Source: Candidatus Acetothermia bacterium (GTDB lineage: Bacteria; Bipolaricaulota; Bipolaricaulia; M55B111). From it: a stretch of 47,076 nucleotides of DNA. Under the pieces are notes generated by a model that saw only the letters and a program-made list of their open reading frames with translations, was not told the DNA's origin and made no database searches. The translations under genes and the position numbers were made by a program. Where the stretch lies: assembly GCA_046543285.1 (NCBI GenBank), contig JBKGZS010000003.1, forward strand, positions 1 through 47,076, in the 5' to 3' direction. Below, one piece after another: positions 58-21,510 of the stretch (positions are counted from its first letter, which is position 1; the number at the start of each line of letters is the position of its first letter).

Positions 58-1845
58 CTATACCTCGCTGGGCTTGAACTGCAATTTGTGAAACTCGAAA
101 AATTTGCCCTCTTCCTCCATAAGCTGTCGGTAAGTTCCCTGCTCCTTGATCCTTCCCTCCTCGATGAACAGGATTTGGTCCGAGTTTACCACTGTGGACA
201 GCCGGTGGGCGATAATGATAGTGGTCCGCCCCTCGCTTACTCTATCGATTGCTTCCTGGATTAGCTGTTCCGTATAGGAATCGACGGACGAGGTGGCTTC
301 GTCCAGAATGAGGATTCCGGGATCCTGGAGAAGGGCTCGGGCAATAGATATCCGCTGGCGCTGACCGCCGGAGAGCTTCACTCCTCGTTGACCTACCTCG
401 GTATCGTAACTGTCGGGAAGCTCGTTGGCGAAGGTGTCCACGTTTGCTTCTCGGGCAAAATGGAGGATTTCTTCCATAGGAGAGTCGGGGTCTCCGTAGG
501 CGATGTTTTCTCTGATAGTTCCGGAAAAGAGGAAGTCATCTTGCATCACCATGGAAACGTTATTTCGCAGAGATTTGAGATCCCAGTCTTTTACATTTAC
601 TCCTTCGACGGTCACTTTCCCCCGGTCCACGTCGTAAAAGCGAGGAATCAACTGGGCGATGGTAGTTTTTCCCGCTCCGCTGGGTCCTACCAAGGCAACC
701 GTTTCTCGGGGGTTCACGCTGAAACTGAGGTCCTTCAGTACTTGTTCGCCGCCCTGGTATGTGAAGTCGACTTTGTCGAATGTGATCTCCCCCTCAAATT
801 CTCCTGGATCTTTTCTGAAAGATCCAGGAGTGAGTGCGATGTCAGGCTTGAGGTCGATGTGGGAGAAGAACCTTTCTGTGCTGGCAAAAAAACGGCTGAG
901 CCGTTCCCCGATGCGCACCAGTCGCAGGATGGGAGCCCTAAAGCGCATAAGATACGTATAAAAGGCCACCACTGTCCCTGCCGTCAGGTGGCCTGCCGCC
1001 ACCAGGTATCCCCCGTAACCCAGGGTCAATACCAGCCCGATGCTGTTGAGGAAGAAGGACACCGGACCCAGGGTGCTGAAATATTTTATTGCAGCAGCCC
1101 GGGCATGATAGTGCTCTTCATTCCTATCGATGAACCGTTCTTGTTCGTAATTTTCATTGGCAAAAGATTTGATAACTTTCATCCCGGAAAGGTTGTCTTC
1201 CAGGCGATCATTCAACCTGGCTTTTGCCTGCCGGTTCCTGCGAAATGCCTTGTGCATTCGCTCGATCAAGACAGTGGCAAATATCGCGAGAAAAGGGGTA
1301 AAGGAGAGCGCGATCAGCGTGAGGGGGACATTTAAGGTGAACAGTATTACCAGAACGCCAAGGATGGTGGTTCCCGCTTCTAACACGCCTTCCGGACCGT
1401 GATGAATAAACTCCTGCATGAGGTTCAGGTCGTCAATGACCCGGGACATCAATTCTCCCGTCTTGCGGTTGTCGTGAAATCTCATTGGGAGTTGCTGGAA
1501 GTGGTTGTAGAGGTCGTTGCGCATGTCAAATACTATCCGCTGGGCTATCCGGTGGCCGAAATAATTTCGAAGAAACCTTATTAAACTGATGCCGGTAAAT
1601 GTTCCCAGGGCGTAGAGGGATAGAGTTATTACTTCGCTTATATTTCCCGAGGGAATGGCGGTATCGATCATTTGCCGGAGCAAAAGCGGGGGAATTAATC
1701 CCACCAGAGCACCTAGAACGTGGAGCGACTGAATGGGCAAGTAAGTCTTTAAATTTGGCCGCAGATAGTCGTGAATAAACCTTCTTAGCAGGTATGATCT
1801 GTCGTCATTCTGATCGTATTCCTCTTCACTGCTGCGATTTTGCAC
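58..1845 (-). CDS. ABC exporter, fused TMD + NBD (MsbA/Sav1866-like half transporter)
   Basis: N-terminal multi-TM domain; Walker A GPSGAGKT, signature LSGGQRQR, Walker B LILDEATSS, H-loop IAHRLST; GTG start preceded by AAGGAG. Confidence 0.93.
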   Translation of the reverse strand: MQNRSSEEEYDQNDDRSYLLRRFIHDYLRPNLKTYLPIQSLHVLGALVGLIPPLLLRQMIDTAIPSGNISEVITLSLYALGTFTGISLIRFLRNYFGHRIAQRIVFDMRNDLYNHFQQLPMRFHDNRKTGELMSRVIDDLNLMQEFIHHGPEGVLEAGTTILGVLVILFTLNVPLTLIALSFTPFLAIFATVLIERMHKAFRRNRQAKARLNDRLEDNLSGMKVIKSFANENYEQERFIDRNEEHYHARAAAIKYFSTLGPVSFFLNSIGLVLTLGYGGYLVAAGHLTAGTVVAFYTYLMRFRAPILRLVRIGERLSRFFASTERFFSHIDLKPDIALTPGSFRKDPGEFEGEITFDKVDFTYQGGEQVLKDLSFSVNPRETVALVGPSGAGKTTIAQLIPRFYDVDRGKVTVEGVNVKDWDLKSLRNNVSMVMQDDFLFSGTIRENIAYGDPDSPMEEILHFAREANVDTFANELPDSYDTEVGQRGVKLSGGQRQRISIARALLQDPGILILDEATSSVDSYTEQLIQEAIDRVSEGRTTIIIAHRLSTVVNSDQILFIEEGRIKEQGTYRQLMEEEGKFFEFHKLQFKPSEV

Positions 1846-2376: not shown

Positions 2377-5300
2377 ATGGTTTTGAGAAAGCTGGATAGG
2401 TATATTATCAAGCAGCTGGTTTATCCCTTTTTGTTTTCCGTGGTAGGCCTGATAATTTTTGTATCGCTTTCTCTTGCAATACAGCTTTCTGACCTGTTGC
2501 TTTCCCGCGGTACCTCGTTTTTGGGGTTGTTTTATTTACTGGGATTGAGACTCCCTGAATTTTTGGTATTTGCTCTTCCTATCGCCGTTCTGTTTGCGAT
2601 TTTCACGGTTTTCGCTCGCCTTATCCACGATCAGGAGATCCTCGGTTTCCAGCTGGGCGGTTATTCTATCCAGCGAATCGTGGTTCCCATTATCCTGTTT
2701 GGCCTTATGGCCAGCCTGTTGGGTCTTGCCGTGAACTGTTATCTTGCTCCCTGGGCCAACTTTCGTTACCGGGAGACGCTCTACCGGATTGCCCGAGGCG
2801 AGGAAGAGTTTGAAGTTCAATCAGATGTCTTCTTTAAAGGCCCGGAAGGCCGTACGTTTTACGTAGGGCACTATCAACCGGAAAGCGATAAGTTGGAAAA
2901 CGTGCTGATTTTTGACCCCGGTGGTTTGGGAATCACCGATAAGGAGAATTCCGACGACTTTCCGCAGCTAATAACCAGTAAAGGCGCGATCGTTCGCGGT
3001 GACAAATGGGAGCTCAAGGACGGATATTCTCTACGTCTGGACGAAAAAGGTCAGGTAAGTCATACCGTCGCTTTTGAAACCATGGAATTTGCTGTGGGCC
3101 GGGAGACGGAGGATCTGCTGCTGGAGAATAAACAGCCTGATGAAATGCCCCCTCTTGAATTAAGAAGACAGATCCGGAACGCTGAACTGGGCGGATTAAA
3201 TGTCGATGATCTGAAGCTGGCCCTGCACACCAAATTATCCCTTCCTCTGGCTGCCCTGGTCTTTTCTCTTTTTGCCGGACCTCTCAGTTTGTTATTTCGT
3301 CATCGAAGCCGGGCTGTAGGAATTCTTTTGAGCGTGGTCCTCGCAGGAGGCTATCAGGGCTTGTTGCTTTGGATCAGGACTCTGGTCAACCAGGCTAGCT
3401 TTGATCCGATTCTGGGCGCTTGGTTGCCCGACTTGATTTTCGGCGGAATGGGGACAGTTTTGTTCCTTGCTCTGGCGACAATAACCACTCACAGACTGGC
3501 GAAGTGGAAGAAAAACTTACGCAACCGCCTTCCTTTTTGTTTCATGCTGGCCATCACTCTTGCTCTATTTGGCATTTTGGCTTGTGTTAACCGGGCAACC
3601 GCAACTGAAAAGGAAGAGTCGGGACTCCCCTTTCGTCTAGAAGCTGAGCGTATTGAAATGACGAGAGAAGGTACTGAGGCCCGGGGCGGGGTGATAATTT
3701 CCTCTGGTGAGTGGCAAATAGGGACAGACTTTCTGTCTTTCCGGTCCACTAAAGAGGACCTGTATATGGTCGAGGGTGATCGAGAAGTGAGGTTCCAGGC
3801 CCCGGACCTGTCCTTTGATGCAGATTCTTTCTCCGCCCTTCTCCGGCGAGAGGAAGATGGAATTGTTCCCCTTAACCTCGATCTGGAGAGTGTGAGAGGG
3901 AGAACCGAAGATGTATTATTTTCGGCCGCGGAGGCAACTATCAATCTGGAAGATGGAAAAGTGGAGCAAATCATTTTATCTGCCGAAGCGATCCTGGAGT
4001 ACGGAGACGAGAGATTGAATGCGGAAGAAATCTCGATTTTCCGTTCCCAGAAGGGTTGGGAAATACATGCCGAGCATCAGGTCGATTACCGGCGGCCGGG
4101 GACCAGCCTGCAAAGCAAAGACCTTAGGATAAATTTAAGAGAGCAGTCTGGAAAGCTCCAGGCCCAGCGACTGCAGCTGATGGAGTATGAAGGCAATCTG
4201 CCTTTACGTACCGAGGAGGGCAGAGTGGATCTGTTTTTTCAGGCTGACCGCGGTTATCTGAAATTTGACGATCAGGGCAAGTTCCATTCGGCGGAATTGG
4301 AGAATGTTTGGTTTACCCACTGCAGTTGTTGTGGTTTGATAGAGGAGCGACCCTATGGAATCCGTGCTAAGGAGCTTAAAATAAGAGGGAGGGAAGCTGT
4401 ACTGGCTTTTTCTGTCACGATCAAGGCCCTGGGTCGCTCGGTTGGATGGCTTCCGTTTTACTTCATCCCCCTTGATGAATTGCAGGAACGGCTATATTTT
4501 CCGCGTTTCGGCTACGATGAACAGCGGGGGCTGTTCAGTAACTGGGAAGTCCCCCTACGGTTAGGGGAAGGCAGCTATGCTGTTGCGAAGCTGGGCTACT
4601 ATCACCGCAACAGGGCTCTGGGCCTCGGCCTACAGGGTACCGTGCGGGACGGGATACAAGAGGGAGAGTTTGACCTTTACGCCCTATTGAGGGGGGCTGG
4701 TGAAAATTACTACCGTTTCGTAGTCGAGGATCGCTGGGTCAACAGTGAACTCTTCGACTTCATAGGAAAGTTGAAATATCGCCAGGGTCCGGCGCCGGAC
4801 GGAAAAGGCCCGGAAAATCTGTGGGAGACCGTGGTGAGTCCCAAAAGTCTGCCCGCCCTCGATTTGCTGGTCAGCAGGGAAGAGGGGACGGTGAAAGAAA
4901 AAGCAGTGAAGCAAAAGTTCATTCTCCACCGGCTTCCGGAACTAAGATACTCTTGGAAGGGAGAACCTGACAGTTTTGCATTAGGTGAATATCGTTTCGA
5001 TTTTTCTGCCGGCCATTATTCAGAAACCCCTGCTGAAAATTCCAAGATGGTGATTGGGAACAAGCTCGCTCTGAATTCGGAGTTCGAGTCCCTTTCTTGG
5101 GAGCTGGGGCCGGTTTCCGGAGGTGTGGAAGGTTCCGGGGGAGTGGATAAATATTTATCCTCCAGGGACTTTGGAAACTCCGGATGGAGGTACAGATACG
5201 GTTTTCAGCCCTATTTGACTTTTGGAAAGGAGGCACTGGCTCTTCAGTTTGCCCATCGGTTCGTAGAGGGAAGTTCCCCTTTTGTTTTCGACCGGAAGGA

Positions 5301-16318: not shown

Positions 16319-17347
16319 ATGTTTTCTGTGAAAGATCTCAGGATTGAACGTGAACCGACCCCGGGCGCTCTGGGGGAAGGTTATTTCAATTTCAGTGACA
16401 GGTACTCCGTCTTTGATTGGGGCGAGATGCCCGATTTGATACCAGCTAAAGGTCAGGCGCTGGCCATGATGGGCGGTTACAATTTCGAACTTTTGGAGGA
16501 AGCCGGTCTTTACACTCACTACCGGGGAATGGTTGAAGGCGGGGATTGTCGACTAACTACCCAGCTCTCCTCACCTTCCGATCGCATGGCCGTCAGTCTG
16601 GCCTGGCGACCGGAGTTAACTTACGACGAAGGTTATCAGTATCCGGATCTGGAGGAAGTTGACAATTATTTGATTCCCCTGGAAGTGATTTTTAGAAACT
16701 CGATTCCCGAAGGTTCCTCTATCCGCAGGAGATATGATCCTCAGGATCTGGGGTTCGATATAGGCCAGTGGCCTGAGGAGGAACTGCCGCTTTCCGAGCC
16801 CCTTGTCGAATACTCCACGAAACTGGAAGAGAAGGACCGCTATCTGGAGATTGAAGAAGCTTTCCAAATTTCCGGGTTGACCGAAGGCGAGTTCGATCAG
16901 CTAGAAGAAGTAGCTGAAAAGGTAAACGCTATCCTCACTGATCATGCGGAAGCACAGGGCTTTGATCATCTGGATGGGAAGATAGAATGTGTATATTCCA
17001 AAGGGAAAATCCTGGTTGCCGACGCCGTAGGAACTTTTGATGAAAACAGGTTTTCCTGGAGAGATTTCCAGATTTCTAAGGAGGTGCTGCGCCAGTGGTA
17101 TCGTGAAAACGATCCAGATTGGTATCGGTCTCTGGATGAAGGCCGAAAACTGGCGAAGCAAAAGGGTTCTTCTGACTGGAAGAGTTTTGTCGAAAGAGAC
17201 CCTAAACCCCTGACGCCGGATTTTCTCGACCTCGTTTCCAAGATGTACAGGGCCGGGACGAACCATTGGCTGAACAAAAAAATCTTCGACGTCGAAGAGT
17301 TAGCTAAAGTTACGGAGGAGATCAAACAATGGGTAAAGATTCACTAG
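16319..17347 (+). CDS. purC: SAICAR synthetase, long archaeal-type form
   Basis: SVKDL..FSDRYSVFDWGEMPDLIPAKG, IPLEVIFRN, YSTKLEEKDRYL, DGKIE, ADAVGTFDENRF, SKEVLRQWY. Confidence 0.92.
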   Translation: MFSVKDLRIEREPTPGALGEGYFNFSDRYSVFDWGEMPDLIPAKGQALAMMGGYNFELLEEAGLYTHYRGMVEGGDCRLTTQLSSPSDRMAVSLAWRPELTYDEGYQYPDLEEVDNYLIPLEVIFRNSIPEGSSIRRRYDPQDLGFDIGQWPEEELPLSEPLVEYSTKLEEKDRYLEIEEAFQISGLTEGEFDQLEEVAEKVNAILTDHAEAQGFDHLDGKIECVYSKGKILVADAVGTFDENRFSWRDFQISKEVLRQWYRENDPDWYRSLDEGRKLAKQKGSSDWKSFVERDPKPLTPDFLDLVSKMYRAGTNHWLNKKIFDVEELAKVTEEIKQWVKIH

Positions 17348-17841
17348 TAGTAATTTTTATGGGGTCCGAAAAGGATCTCGATCATGCAGAAGAAATCGTT
17401 GAAGTATTGGATCGCTTCCAGGTTGAGCACGAAGTCCGAGCTCTTTCGGCCCATAAGCTGGCGCGGGTGGTGCTGGAAGAACTGGAAAACTACGACGAAA
17501 GTTACGAGCAGGTAATCTATATTGCCGTGGCAGGCAGGTCAAATGCACTGGGCCCGATGATTTCTGCCCATACTACGAATCCCGTTATCAATTGCCCTGT
17601 TATCGGCAGTTTTCAGGAAGACCTCTTTTCTTCTCTGCGAACTCCTTCCGCGGTTCCCTGTTCTACAATATTGGATCCGGGAAATGCCGCAATTCATGCT
17701 GTTCAAATACTCGGTCTTTCCGATCAGGATTTGAGCGCCAGACTCCGAGAGTGGCGAGCTCAGGTAGTCGAATCTCTAAAAGAGACCGACCGGAAGGTCC
17801 AGGAAAAGGGCGACCAACCCCAAAGAGGCCGGGTGGTTTGA
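17329..17841 (+). CDS. purE: AIR carboxylase PurE, class II-like
   Basis: VVIFMGSEKD, SAHK, IAVAGRSNALG, PVINCP, DLFSSLRTPS. Confidence 0.9.
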   Translation: MGKDSLVVIFMGSEKDLDHAEEIVEVLDRFQVEHEVRALSAHKLARVVLEELENYDESYEQVIYIAVAGRSNALGPMISAHTTNPVINCPVIGSFQEDLFSSLRTPSAVPCSTILDPGNAAIHAVQILGLSDQDLSARLREWRAQVVESLKETDRKVQEKGDQPQRGRVV

Positions 17842-18953
17842 TGCCTTTAGCCGTCGATGAGCTGAAATCCGTGGCAGAAAGTTATAAAGTCGAAGACCCC
17901 ACCGATTTGACCATAGGTGTTCTGGGTTCTCATTCAGCCCTGGAAATCGGTTCAGGTGTCAGGGACGAGGGAATGAACACAGTAGTGGTCTGTCAGAAGG
18001 GAAGAGAGGAAACTTATACCAAGCATTATCGCAATCTTTTCGATCACTACTTGCTGCTTGATGATTTCCAGGAGATGGCATCCCCTGAAAATCAGCAAAA
18101 ATTACGAGATTTAAACACCGTCTTCATCCCCAATCGCTCGTTCTCATGTTATGTAGGTTACGATCGGATCGAAAACCAACTCCGAATACCGATGCTGGGC
18201 AACCGTTTTCTACTCCGCACTGAAGAGAGAGACGTGGAGAAAAATCAATATTACCTACTGGATCAGGCGGATATCAGCAGGCCCCGGGAACTGAGCAGTC
18301 CCCAGGAAATCGAGTCTCTGTGTATCGTGAAATTGCACGAGAAAGAGCGATCGGTAGAACGCGCTTTTTTCTATGCTTCCAGTTTCCAGGAGTTCCAACG
18401 GCGGGCCCAGGAGCGCATTGATAAAGGAATCATTGCCGAGGATGATCTGCGTGAGGCCACTATCGAAGAAGTGGCTTTAGGGGGGCTCTTTAACGCCAAT
18501 TACTTCTGGTCTCCCTTGGATGACGAAGTCGACTTACTGGGTTTTGATCGGAGGATCCAATCAGATCTGGACGGGTTGCTGCGCTTGCCCGCGGAAGAGC
18601 AACTGGAAGCCGGCGTGGAACATCAAAACGTGGAAGTGGGGCACTACGGAGCGACCATGCGGGAGTCCCAGCTGGAAAAAATATTCCGAGCCGGACGCAA
18701 GTTCATCGAAACCTGCCGGGAGGAATACCCTCCGGGTATGGTTGGTTTGTTCGCTTTACAGGGGGTGCTGACCAAAGATTTGGAGTTTCAGGTGTTCGAT
18801 GTTTCCCCTCGAATTCCTGGCTGTCCCTGTGTCGAGCCCACTTCACCCTACATGAAGTACAAGTACGGCAAAGAAGTAGGGCCCGGCAGAAGGGTTGCCA
18901 TGGAACTGAAGCATGCAGTTCGCACAGGCGAGCTTTCGGAGGTCATAACCTAA
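17841..18953 (+). CDS. purP: Formate-dependent AICAR formyltransferase (FAICAR synthetase) family, ATP-grasp, paralog 1
   Basis: LGSHSALEI, FIPNRSFSCYVG, GNRFLLRTEER, RESQLEK, FDVSPRIPG, GRRVAMEL; start ATG 17841 overlaps the purE stop. Confidence 0.88.
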   Translation: MPLAVDELKSVAESYKVEDPTDLTIGVLGSHSALEIGSGVRDEGMNTVVVCQKGREETYTKHYRNLFDHYLLLDDFQEMASPENQQKLRDLNTVFIPNRSFSCYVGYDRIENQLRIPMLGNRFLLRTEERDVEKNQYYLLDQADISRPRELSSPQEIESLCIVKLHEKERSVERAFFYASSFQEFQRRAQERIDKGIIAEDDLREATIEEVALGGLFNANYFWSPLDDEVDLLGFDRRIQSDLDGLLRLPAEEQLEAGVEHQNVEVGHYGATMRESQLEKIFRAGRKFIETCREEYPPGMVGLFALQGVLTKDLEFQVFDVSPRIPGCPCVEPTSPYMKYKYGKEVGPGRRVAMELKHAVRTGELSEVIT

Positions 18954-19957
18954 TGGCATACGAATTCCCAACCGTCGCTACTTTATGCTCTCATTCGGCC
19001 CTTCAGATTTTCCACGGAGCAAGGCAGGAGAATCTGGGTACCCTCGGGGTCTGTACTCCCGAACGCAAGACTCTTTACAGCTCTTTCCCCCAGGCTTCTC
19101 CTGACGAACTCGTAGAGGTAGAGAGTTTCCAGGAGATACTAAACGAAGACCTTCAGGCCCAGCTCAACTCAGAGAACGCAATTCTGATTCCGCACGGTTC
19201 CTTCGTTGAGTACGTGGGGGCCGAGAAAGTGATGAACTCTCTTTCGACCCCGATCTTCGGCAATAGAGATACTCTCGAGTGGGAATCGGATCGGAACAAA
19301 GAGCTCCGCTGGTTGAAAAAGGCCGAGATTCAAGTCCCCGATGAATACAGCTCGCCGGAGGAGATTGAGGGTCTCGCAATCGTCAAATTTGGTGGAGCCA
19401 AAGGGGGAGCCGGCTTCTTTCTAGCCGGATCCACTGAAGAATTCTACGAGAAAATTGGAGATCGCTCTCCTGAACAGGCCACCATCCAGGAATGGATCGC
19501 TGGGACCCGTTACTATCCTCACTACTTCTATTCTCCGCTTGACGACAGGCTGGAAATCCTCGGTATTGACCGCCGCGACGAATCCAACGTAGACGAATAT
19601 TATCGGTGGGAGAAAGGGCCAAAGAGTTTTGTGGTCGTTGGAAACAAGCCTCTGGCGGTAAGGGAGTCGCTGCTTCCCAAGCTCCACCGAATGGGAAGAC
19701 GCCTGGTTGAGGTTTCTCAGAAAATGTTTCCGCCCGGCTTGATGGGTCCTTTCTGCCTGGAAACCGTCTGTACTGACGGTCTCGAGTTTGTGACCTTTGA
19801 AGTGTCAGCTCGAATCGTGGCCGGTACCAATCTCTATCCCATGGGTTCGCCCTATTCCTGGTACTATTACAACGAGCCGATGAGCACTGGGCGCAGAATT
19901 GCCCGAGAGATTCGGCAGGCAGTGCGGAGAGACCTGCTTGATAAAATAACCAGCTAA
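18953..19957 (+). CDS. purP: Formate-dependent AICAR formyltransferase (FAICAR synthetase) family, paralog 2
   Basis: [67 protein letters not shown]; TAATG coupling to paralog 1. Confidence 0.9.
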
Positions 19958-19980: not shown

Positions 19981-21510
19981 GTGGATAAACTGTTAGTGCT
20001 CGATTTCGGCGGTCAGTACTCTCATTTGATTGCTCGTCGGATCAGGGAGGTCGGTGTCTATTCGGAGGTTCTCAATCCGGACCGGGATGACCTCCTGGAA
20101 ATCAGCGAACTGGAGGAGATCAAAGGGCTGGTTCTGTCCGGCGGGGCTTTCTCCGTTTACGACGAGGGAGCTCCGGAGTGCAGCGAGGAAGTTCTCGAAC
20201 TTGCCTGCCCGGTGCTCGGAATCTGTTACGGCCATCAGCTACTCGCCCAACTTGTCGGCGGAGAGGTTTCACCTGGAGAGTCCGCTGAATACGGTAATAC
20301 GGACCTCACAATCCGCCGTCACAACCATCTGCTTTCCGGGTTGGAAGAGACTGAGACCGTGTGGATGAACCACAAGGACACCGTGTTGAGCATGCCGGAT
20401 CGCTTTTCGATCCTGGCCACTACCGATCACTCACCGGTTGCCGTATTCGCCGACCCAGGTCGCGATCTTTACGGGGTCCAATTCCATCCGGAAGTAAGCC
20501 ATACTGACAAAGGTAAAAAAGTGCTGGAAAACTTTGCGGTTTCCATCTGCGGGGCCAATCCCAGTTGGGATCCCAGGGTGGCGGGCGAGGAGATGGTAGC
20601 GGAAGCAGAAGAAGCCCTTAAAGGACGTCGCGCCGTGATAGGGCTTTCCGGAGGGGTCGATTCCTCGACGGCTGCTGCCATTACCAGTCGGGCCATCGGC
20701 GATCGATTGCACGCAGTCTACGTTGATACTGGACTGATGAGGCGGGGTGATACCCGATTTATCCAGGAAACTTTCTCCGGTTCTTCGCTCAATTTACACA
20801 TTGTGGACGCCAGCGATCGGTTTTTCAAAGCCCTGAAGGGGGTAAGTGATCCGGAAGAGAAACGGAAAGCGGTTGGTGCCACGTTTATCGACGTGTTTGA
20901 TGAGGTGGCCCGGGAAGTCCAAGCCGACGTTCTGATCCAGGGCACTATCTATTCTGATAGAATCGAAAGTGGGATAACCGAACACTCCGCCACCATCAAA
21001 TCCCATCATAATGTAGGAGGTCTTCCGGAGGAGATGGATCTCGAGGTTTATGAACCTCTCCGGAATCTCTACAAGGACGAGGTCCGTCAGGTGGCCGAGG
21101 AGTTTGGCCTGCCGGAAGTCACCCGAACCAGACATGTTTTTCCTGGTCCTGGATTAGCCATCAGAATTGTGGGGGAAGTTACTCCTGAAAAGGCCGAAAT
21201 AGTCCGCTCCGCCAGCTATATCGTGGAGGACGAACTTCGGAATGAAGGCCTCTATACTGATTTTTGGATGGCTTTTGCCGTTCTCTTATCTATCAGAAGC
21301 GTAGGAATCCAGGGCGATGCGCGCAGTTATAAATATCCGATTGTGGTGAGGGTCATCGAGTCCGAAGACGCGATGACCGCAAATTTTGCCCGCCTTCCTT
21401 ACGACCTGCTCCAGCGGATCTCAACTAGAATCACAAACGAAATCCAGGAAGTAAATCGTGTCGCTTACGACATTTCCAATAAACCTCCTTCTACCATGGA
21501 GTGGGAGTGA
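19981..21510 (+). CDS. guaA: GMP synthase (glutamine-hydrolysing)
   Basis: LDFGGQY, LGICYGHQ, QFHPEV, LSGGVDS, IKSHHNVGGL, FPGPGLAIR, KPPSTMEWE. Confidence 0.97.
   Translation: MDKLLVLDFGGQYSHLIARRIREVGVYSEVLNPDRDDLLEISELEEIKGLVLSGGAFSVYDEGAPECSEEVLELACPVLGICYGHQLLAQLVGGEVSPGESAEYGNTDLTIRRHNHLLSGLEETETVWMNHKDTVLSMPDRFSILATTDHSPVAVFADPGRDLYGVQFHPEVSHTDKGKKVLENFAVSICGANPSWDPRVAGEEMVAEAEEALKGRRAVIGLSGGVDSSTAAAITSRAIGDRLHAVYVDTGLMRRGDTRFIQETFSGSSLNLHIVDASDRFFKALKGVSDPEEKRKAVGATFIDVFDEVAREVQADVLIQGTIYSDRIESGITEHSATIKSHHNVGGLPEEMDLEVYEPLRNLYKDEVRQVAEEFGLPEVTRTRHVFPGPGLAIRIVGEVTPEKAEIVRSASYIVEDELRNEGLYTDFWMAFAVLLSIRSVGIQGDARSYKYPIVVRVIESEDAMTANFARLPYDLLQRISTRITNEIQEVNRVAYDISNKPPSTMEWE

Follow-up and report, generated by a model that had tools for sequence, protein, structure and literature searches.

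A probable signal peptide retained between the permease and LptD-like halves of a fused Lpt protein from a Candidatus Acetothermia bacterium

The stretch of DNA analyzed here, referred to as the window, comprises 47,076 nucleotides from a Candidatus Acetothermia bacterium (assembly GCA_046543285.1, contig JBKGZS010000003.1). A single open reading frame near its start encodes an LptF/LptG-type (LptF/G) permease followed by an LptD-like jellyroll and barrel (Table 1), and the question that this locus raises is what happens to the polypeptide at the joint between the two. If the joint is cut, the protein would belong to an ordinary two-protein Lpt system that is made as a polyprotein; if it stays uncut, the product would be a covalent chain that spans the envelope. 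An earlier note on this DNA had placed a signal of the signal peptidase I (SPase I) type in mid-protein, between the LptF/G and LptD-like halves, and had offered either cleavage or a tether as the outcome.

Table 1. Parts of the fused open reading frame, in window positions (aa, amino acid residues).
Feature	Position	Strand	Basis
Whole ORF: LptF/G permease, signal-peptide-like linker, LptD-like jellyroll and barrel, 1167 aa	2377..5880	+	
LptF/LptG permease domain, aa 8-364, six TM helices with periplasmic jellyroll (strands 149-239)	2398..3468	+	Pfam PF03739, AF2, Foldseek
n-region, aa 372-384, HRLAKWKKNLRNR, basic cytoplasmic loop after TM6	3490..3528	+	sequence
h-region, aa 385-404, LPFCFMLAITLALFGILACV, seventh hydrophobic segment	3529..3588	+	sequence; AF2 helix 374-404, low pLDDT
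c-region, aa 405-409, NRATA; predicted SPase I site after A409 (nt 3603/3604)	3589..3603	+	(-3,-1) rule, ATA/TEK
Long beta-jellyroll, aa 420-647, LptD_N/LptA-like, ends at conserved TxCxC, invariant C649	3634..4317	+	AF2 strands; PF03968 in relatives
LptD-like beta-barrel, aa 660-1158, invariant C1140	4354..5850	+	AF2, Foldseek

The N-terminal half was readily recognized. The Pfam LptF_LptG profile matched residues 8-364 (E 2e-78; 264.4 bits against a cut-off of 27.9), and the domain scored 268.7 bits in the genome search. Since the match stops at residue 364, the segment at residues 372-409 does come after the last permease helix, and the anatomy that had been described there (a basic n-region, a hydrophobic core and NRATA before a Thr) proved accurate. 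The permease missed the NCBIfam equivalog cut-offs both for LptF (182.7 of 230) and for LptG (149.6 of 240), so that this half cannot be assigned clearly to either. In residues 372-410 (nucleotides 3490-3606), the sequence is HRLAKWKKNLRNR, LPFCFMLAITLALFGILACV and NRATA, followed by T410-EKEES. Six Lys/Arg residues are found in the n-region and 20 uncharged hydrophobic residues in the core; the n-, h- and c-regions of an SPase I-type signal peptide and the small residues at positions -3 and -1 are thus all present. Starting as late as residue 372, the segment is internal in the fused frame; in the split homologs described below it is N-terminal.

The C-terminal half was harder to place. A Pfam scan of the window protein gave no match to PF04453 or PF03968 at E values up to 1, and a profile search of the genome gave none either. 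A full search of 1.84 billion representatives returned 47 relatives at E values up to 1e-3, and the weakest matches of the query include a genuine PF04453 LptD (P0111, E 5e-4) and an LptD_2 protein. LptD_N (PF03968) was matched by 13 of the 42 relatives scanned. The genome contig collection, which was searched with the single protein P0001, yielded no relative. We built an AlphaFold2 (AF2) model of the window protein on a 42-sequence alignment, with a mean pLDDT of 86.3. Its permease part has six helices, and a periplasmic jellyroll sits between TM3 and TM4. A further helix covers residues 374-404, after which come a long jellyroll (420-647) and a large barrel (660-1158). Confidence was lowest at the segment, where the 10-residue blocks over 371-420 had means of 56, 59, 54, 35 and 46. 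When the model was compared with the PDB by Foldseek, the top match was full-length LptD (4q35_A; E 7e-25, 776 columns, TMt 0.57, 13% identity), and LptG and LptF structures came after it (for LptG, 6mit_G with a TMt of 0.80 and 6mjp_G with 0.76). As modeled, the C-terminal half is an N-terminal jellyroll joined to a large barrel and is LptD-like in its predicted fold. Only three columns, C649, P693 and C1140, are invariant across the 42 sequences.

Relatives that lack the permease provided information on the origin of the segment. Nine such proteins of 770-808 aa (P0069-P0071, P0073-P0077 and others) each open with an ordinary signal peptide, such as MHYSRRTK-AITLSLLLIILTTLLFY-PVKPSSGA/TLEAD (the slash marks the predicted cleavage site). 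These signal peptides align on the internal segment of the window protein, their c-regions on NRATA included, and in both cases the first jellyroll strand comes next. Many of the stand-alone barrel proteins have ...GF at their C-terminus. Another group of stand-alone barrels from sister genera is longer, at 884-942 aa (L099/G003, G006, G014; P0068, P0072), and the N-terminal jellyroll of the query matches these proteins twice, which suggests a duplicated jellyroll unit.

We also surveyed 30 related genomes together with the window's own, and an LptF/G match was found in 23 of these 31. The frame is fused (985-1198 aa) in 10 genomes, namely that of the window and nine from five other families of the class. 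A split lptF/G frame of 370-443 aa is present in 12 genomes, 11 of which belong to the window's own family, and in the remaining genome the LptF/G frame is interrupted by a contig end. Ten of the 12 split genomes have lptF/G immediately in front of the barrel gene, with both genes on one strand. At the two junctions that were read (L094 and L097), the lptF/G stop codon occupies 1397-1399 and the barrel gene starts at 1402, 2 nt away and in another frame; in the lptF/G product only some 20 residues of tail follow TM6, and the barrel gene begins with the n-h-c segment. Because the split barrel genes start with it, the seventh hydrophobic segment can be assigned to the barrel gene, and the existence of split pairs in close kin implies that a covalent link between the halves is dispensable there. 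The homology to stand-alone signal peptides and the split gene pairs together bear out the mid-protein signal claimed in the earlier note, and by this sequence evidence residues 372-409 are almost certainly a Sec-type signal peptide that an LptD-like outer-membrane protein has kept.

To describe the segment across the fused family, we clustered the 135 fused proteins that have a complete permease domain at 60% identity, which gave 51 representatives, and delimited hydrophobic cores by charged residues. All 51 carry a hydrophobic core no more than 65 residues after the LptF/G domain, and the loop before it is basic (median 14 residues with 4 Lys/Arg). The cores of the fused segments range from 9 to 24 residues around a median of 14, and 31 of the 51 have at most 15. 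For the 19 stand-alone signal peptides the median is 15, which does not differ from that of the fused segments by a Mann-Whitney test (p 0.41), whereas the cores of TM1-6 have a median of 19 in the 35 proteins with six cores found (p 6e-6), a control on TM length that is imperfect in that TM5 and TM6 are short by the same measure (medians 10 and 14). A loose (-3,-1) rule was uninformative, as all 51 segments conform to it. A narrower rule (A/G/S at -1, A/V/S/T/G/C at -3, no Pro, 2-9 residues past the core) identified a site in 35 of the 51 fused segments and in 9 of the 19 stand-alone peptides, compared with 32 of 105 outward ends of TM1, TM3 and TM5 in the same proteins (Fisher p 6.5e-6 for the segments against these ends). 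The strict A-x-A rule applies to just 19 of the 51, and some members have no clean A-x-A. The core of the window protein, at 20 residues, is among the longest of the family and long enough to remain a TM helix, and an Arg occupies position -4. Both features weigh against cleavage of the window protein itself.

These features bring in the alternative of an uncleaved signal anchor. The segment would then be a seventh TM helix and a single chain would run from the inner membrane to the outer-membrane barrel, forming a covalent trans-envelope Lpt bridge in which this helix might stand in for the LptC anchor of E. coli. A core of 20 residues can span the bilayer, and the modeled jellyroll is long (228 residues); both speak for such a bridge. 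However, the model links the segment helix to the jellyroll by just ~15 residues, the cores of 9-15 residues in the 31 members mentioned above are too short for a stable membrane-crossing helix, and two separate genes suffice in sister genomes. The window genome also encodes a candidate for a separate anchor. On contig C27 of this genome (L004, 639-1496, + strand), the gene for a protein of 285 aa whose N-terminus carries a membrane anchor ends 1 nt before lptB; the match of this protein to LptC is weak (E 0.0032) and, at 17.5 bits, below the cut-off of 21. With this LptC-like anchored protein beside lptB, a separate bridge component exists and a tether is not needed to make the bridge. Lgt is encoded just downstream of lptB on the other strand.

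Published proteomics on Thermotoga maritima bear on both outcomes. Sexton et al. (PNAS 2023, PMC10160955) gave the protein G4FGC1 (Tmari_1743) the name "pABC permease", described it as a fusion of LptF/G, LptA and LptD domains, drew it as an envelope-spanning permease (Fig. 2B) and reported it as enriched in the toga; the part of the text available to us mentions neither cleavage nor a signal peptide. We identified G4FGC1 as our P0242, whose sequence fits the peptide coordinates. In the protein table of that study, G4FGC1 accounts for 0 spectra in the inner-membrane samples and for 38 and 77 spectra in the two toga samples (PMC10160955). Peptides were counted from the Lys-preceded rows within the first 9,152 of Dataset S4, which give 16 of the 25 and 25 of the 37 unique peptides in the two samples, with fully tryptic peptides of 7-25 residues as candidates; the Arg-preceded block, to which 6 N-half candidates belong, lies beyond these rows. 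Among the toga rows listed, 24 of the 34 candidates located after residue 400 were observed and 0 of the 7 located before it (Fisher one-sided p 8.7e-4), and all seven unseen N-half candidates sit in the soluble periplasmic domain at 129-273. The coverage that these rows do not account for (about 111-122 residues) can come from the 16 Arg-preceded candidates of the C-terminal half (170 residues). Peptides of the LptF/G half were not found in the inner-membrane fractions of the available data either (PMC10160955).

From this portion of the data set, the toga species of G4FGC1 appears to be without its permease half, which supports cleavage between residues 274 and 410 of that protein and names neither the protease nor the exact site. 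Such a pattern could also come from another protease or from breakdown during preparation, and G4FGC1 is a distant relative of the window protein, at 21% identity. For an uncleaved tether, these data cut both ways. The drawing of the protein as envelope-spanning and the lack of a separate inner-membrane species of the LptF/G half in the data available from Sexton et al. are in its favor, and the absence of LptF/G-half peptides among the toga rows listed counts against it (PMC10160955). Between the two outcomes that the earlier note had left side by side, the fission in close kin and the Thermotoga peptides favor cleavage, and we regard an uncleaved covalent tether as unlikely. Longer fusions are found in Kosmotogaceae and in "Thermotogales bacterium 46_20" (P0192, P0193, P0197, P0203, P0205); at 1455-1467 aa, these have ~350 residues beyond the other Thermotogota forms.

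If the halves are separated, the agent might be something other than SPase I acting at A409: a different protease could cut elsewhere in the linker, or cut and uncut forms could occur together. The break in the Thermotoga protein is placed by the available peptides only between residues 274 and 410 (PMC10160955), and the low count for the strict A-x-A rule given above leaves room for such an agent. The n-h-c anatomy and the homology to genuine N-terminal signal peptides nevertheless make SPase I the simplest agent, and the enzyme is encoded in the window genome (145 bits against a cut-off of 47), as are Omp85/BamA and LptB. We consider separation by these other routes highly unlikely.

Two further suggestions in the earlier note concerned how the barrel half might arise without a cut at A409, by internal initiation at the ATG at position 3544 or by processing of a lipoprotein at a lipobox-like ILAC. 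The ATG and the ILAC string both exist in the window. However, the 24 bases ahead of ATG 3544, cgcaaccgccttcctttttgtttc, contain neither GGAG nor GAGG and hence no Shine-Dalgarno sequence, and a start at this codon would remove the basic n-region. Nor is a Met conserved across the 51 representatives, of which 10 have one in the first 8 core residues and 13 in the last 12 residues of the loop. As a signal for SPase II, ILAC was rejected because it is unlike the pattern [LVI][ASTVI][GAS]C and its Cys is not conserved: the lipobox pattern occurs in none of the 51 representatives and a Cys near the end of the core in 3. An origin of the barrel half by either path is barely credible.

We propose the following course of events for the cleavage reading, which we judge to be the best one and probable. 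An lptF/G gene would have been fused in frame to the downstream gene for an LptD-like barrel, with the signal peptide of the latter kept. The LptF/G domain would end in the cytoplasm after TM6, and the basic loop would keep the n-region inside. The hydrophobic core would insert as a hairpin with TM6 and start translocation of the C-terminal 758 residues, upon which signal peptidase I would most likely cut after A409 (ATA/TEKEE). The cut would leave the signal segment on the LptF/G permease, as a seventh helix at its C-terminus, and would release the LptD-like jellyroll and barrel as a free precursor bound for BAM. The fusion would then act as a polyprotein for 1:1 co-synthesis rather than as a covalent bridge. 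For the window protein, we infer cleavage itself, its exact site and SPase I as the enzyme as the most likely combination. There is a small chance, which we rate below that of a generally uncleaved tether, that a share of the molecules escapes signal peptidase. These molecules would have six-plus-one inner-membrane helices and an outer-membrane barrel, and would staple both membranes as a single-chain Lpt bridge. If true, such partial escape would provide a single-polypeptide bridge in a lineage that yielded no LPS synthesis genes.

The genome context gives some indication of the cargo. LpxC, LpxB and KdtA were not found in the window genome, which is 79% complete, so the cargo is probably not LPS; LpxC was found in 1 of 31 relatives. 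A single LptF/G gene per genome, as seen in 22 of the 23 relatives with a match, points to an LptF/G homodimer. An MsbA-like ABC exporter (ABC_membrane plus ABC_tran, 595 aa; window 58-1845, - strand) is encoded divergently, ~530 bp upstream of the fused lpt gene, and may be the flippase partner for the same lipid cargo. Farther along the window, a bacterial purine cluster contains tandem DUF1246 plus DUF1297 genes (17592-18953 and 18953-19957, + strand), which we take to be PurP-like, an archaeal-type purine step. The listed start of the first of these genes overlaps purE (17329-17841), and its true start is probably later. The best genome matches of GuaA (19981-21510, + strand), at 64% identity, are labeled Nanoarchaeota and Woesearchaeota, and the bacterial matches listed have 45-51% identity. 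This pattern could reflect gene transfer or mislabeled bins. HisS has its best named relatives, at 65-70% identity, in Candidatus Bipolaricaulota/Acetothermia, and the organism probably belongs to Bipolaricaulota.

The fusion itself is already known, having been published for Thermotoga (PMC10160955), and it is widespread in Thermotogota and in the window's class; the description of the arrangement as unusual in the earlier note was therefore overstated. New here are two things, namely that sister genera in the window's family divide the frame by a stop and a start codon, and how the detected peptides are distributed along the Thermotoga protein; together they make the question of the joint directly testable in cultured Thermotoga or Pseudothermotoga. 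In our literature searches, no paper turned up that discusses cleavage of Lpt fusions or a signal peptide inside them. According to one survey, in the passages available to us, lptD has never been found in "atypical diderms" (PMC8871954). Searches at the Pfam level miss the LptD-like barrel in these lineages, and recognizing the fused gene corrects this picture of lptD for Bipolaricaulota and Thermotogota.

The closest comparison is with the split gene pairs of sister genomes (G013, G004 and eight more; proteins P0268/P0070), which have the same halves in the same order and on the same strand, and carry the n-h-c segment at the N-terminus of the barrel protein. They differ in having a stop codon and a start codon in another frame in place of the in-frame joint. 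G4FGC1 of T. maritima is a member of the same alignable family and has the same succession of LptF/G permease, hydrophobic segment after TM6, LptA/LptD_N-like jellyroll and LptD-like barrel; as in the window's bacterium, LPS synthesis genes were not found in T. maritima. The two proteins share 21% identity (alignment A3), and G4FGC1 is shorter overall (1061 versus 1167 aa), in its core (LFFVAFIFTVSSLF) and in its jellyroll. In the material available to us, Sexton et al. treated it as one envelope-spanning protein (PMC10160955), whereas we read the window protein as probably cleaved.

More distant is the canonical LptB2FGC-LptA-LptDE system of Proteobacteria (4q35, 6mit). The predicted folds of the two halves of the window protein match LptG/LptF and full-length LptD, respectively. 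E. coli LptD has an interdomain disulfide, and the placement of C649 at the end of the jellyroll and of C1140 near the C-terminus of the barrel resembles it. The window system departs from the canonical one in that it has no Pfam LptD or LptD_N match and a single LptF/G gene, and in that LPS is an improbable cargo. To our knowledge, bacterial polyproteins that are split at an internal signal peptide are rare. One is FbcH of Bradyrhizobium, a cytochrome b-c1 polyprotein that is split in this way. Its family is unrelated, but its layout is the one seen in the fused protein: a bacterial membrane protein, then an exported partner in the same frame, with an internal signal sequence between them.
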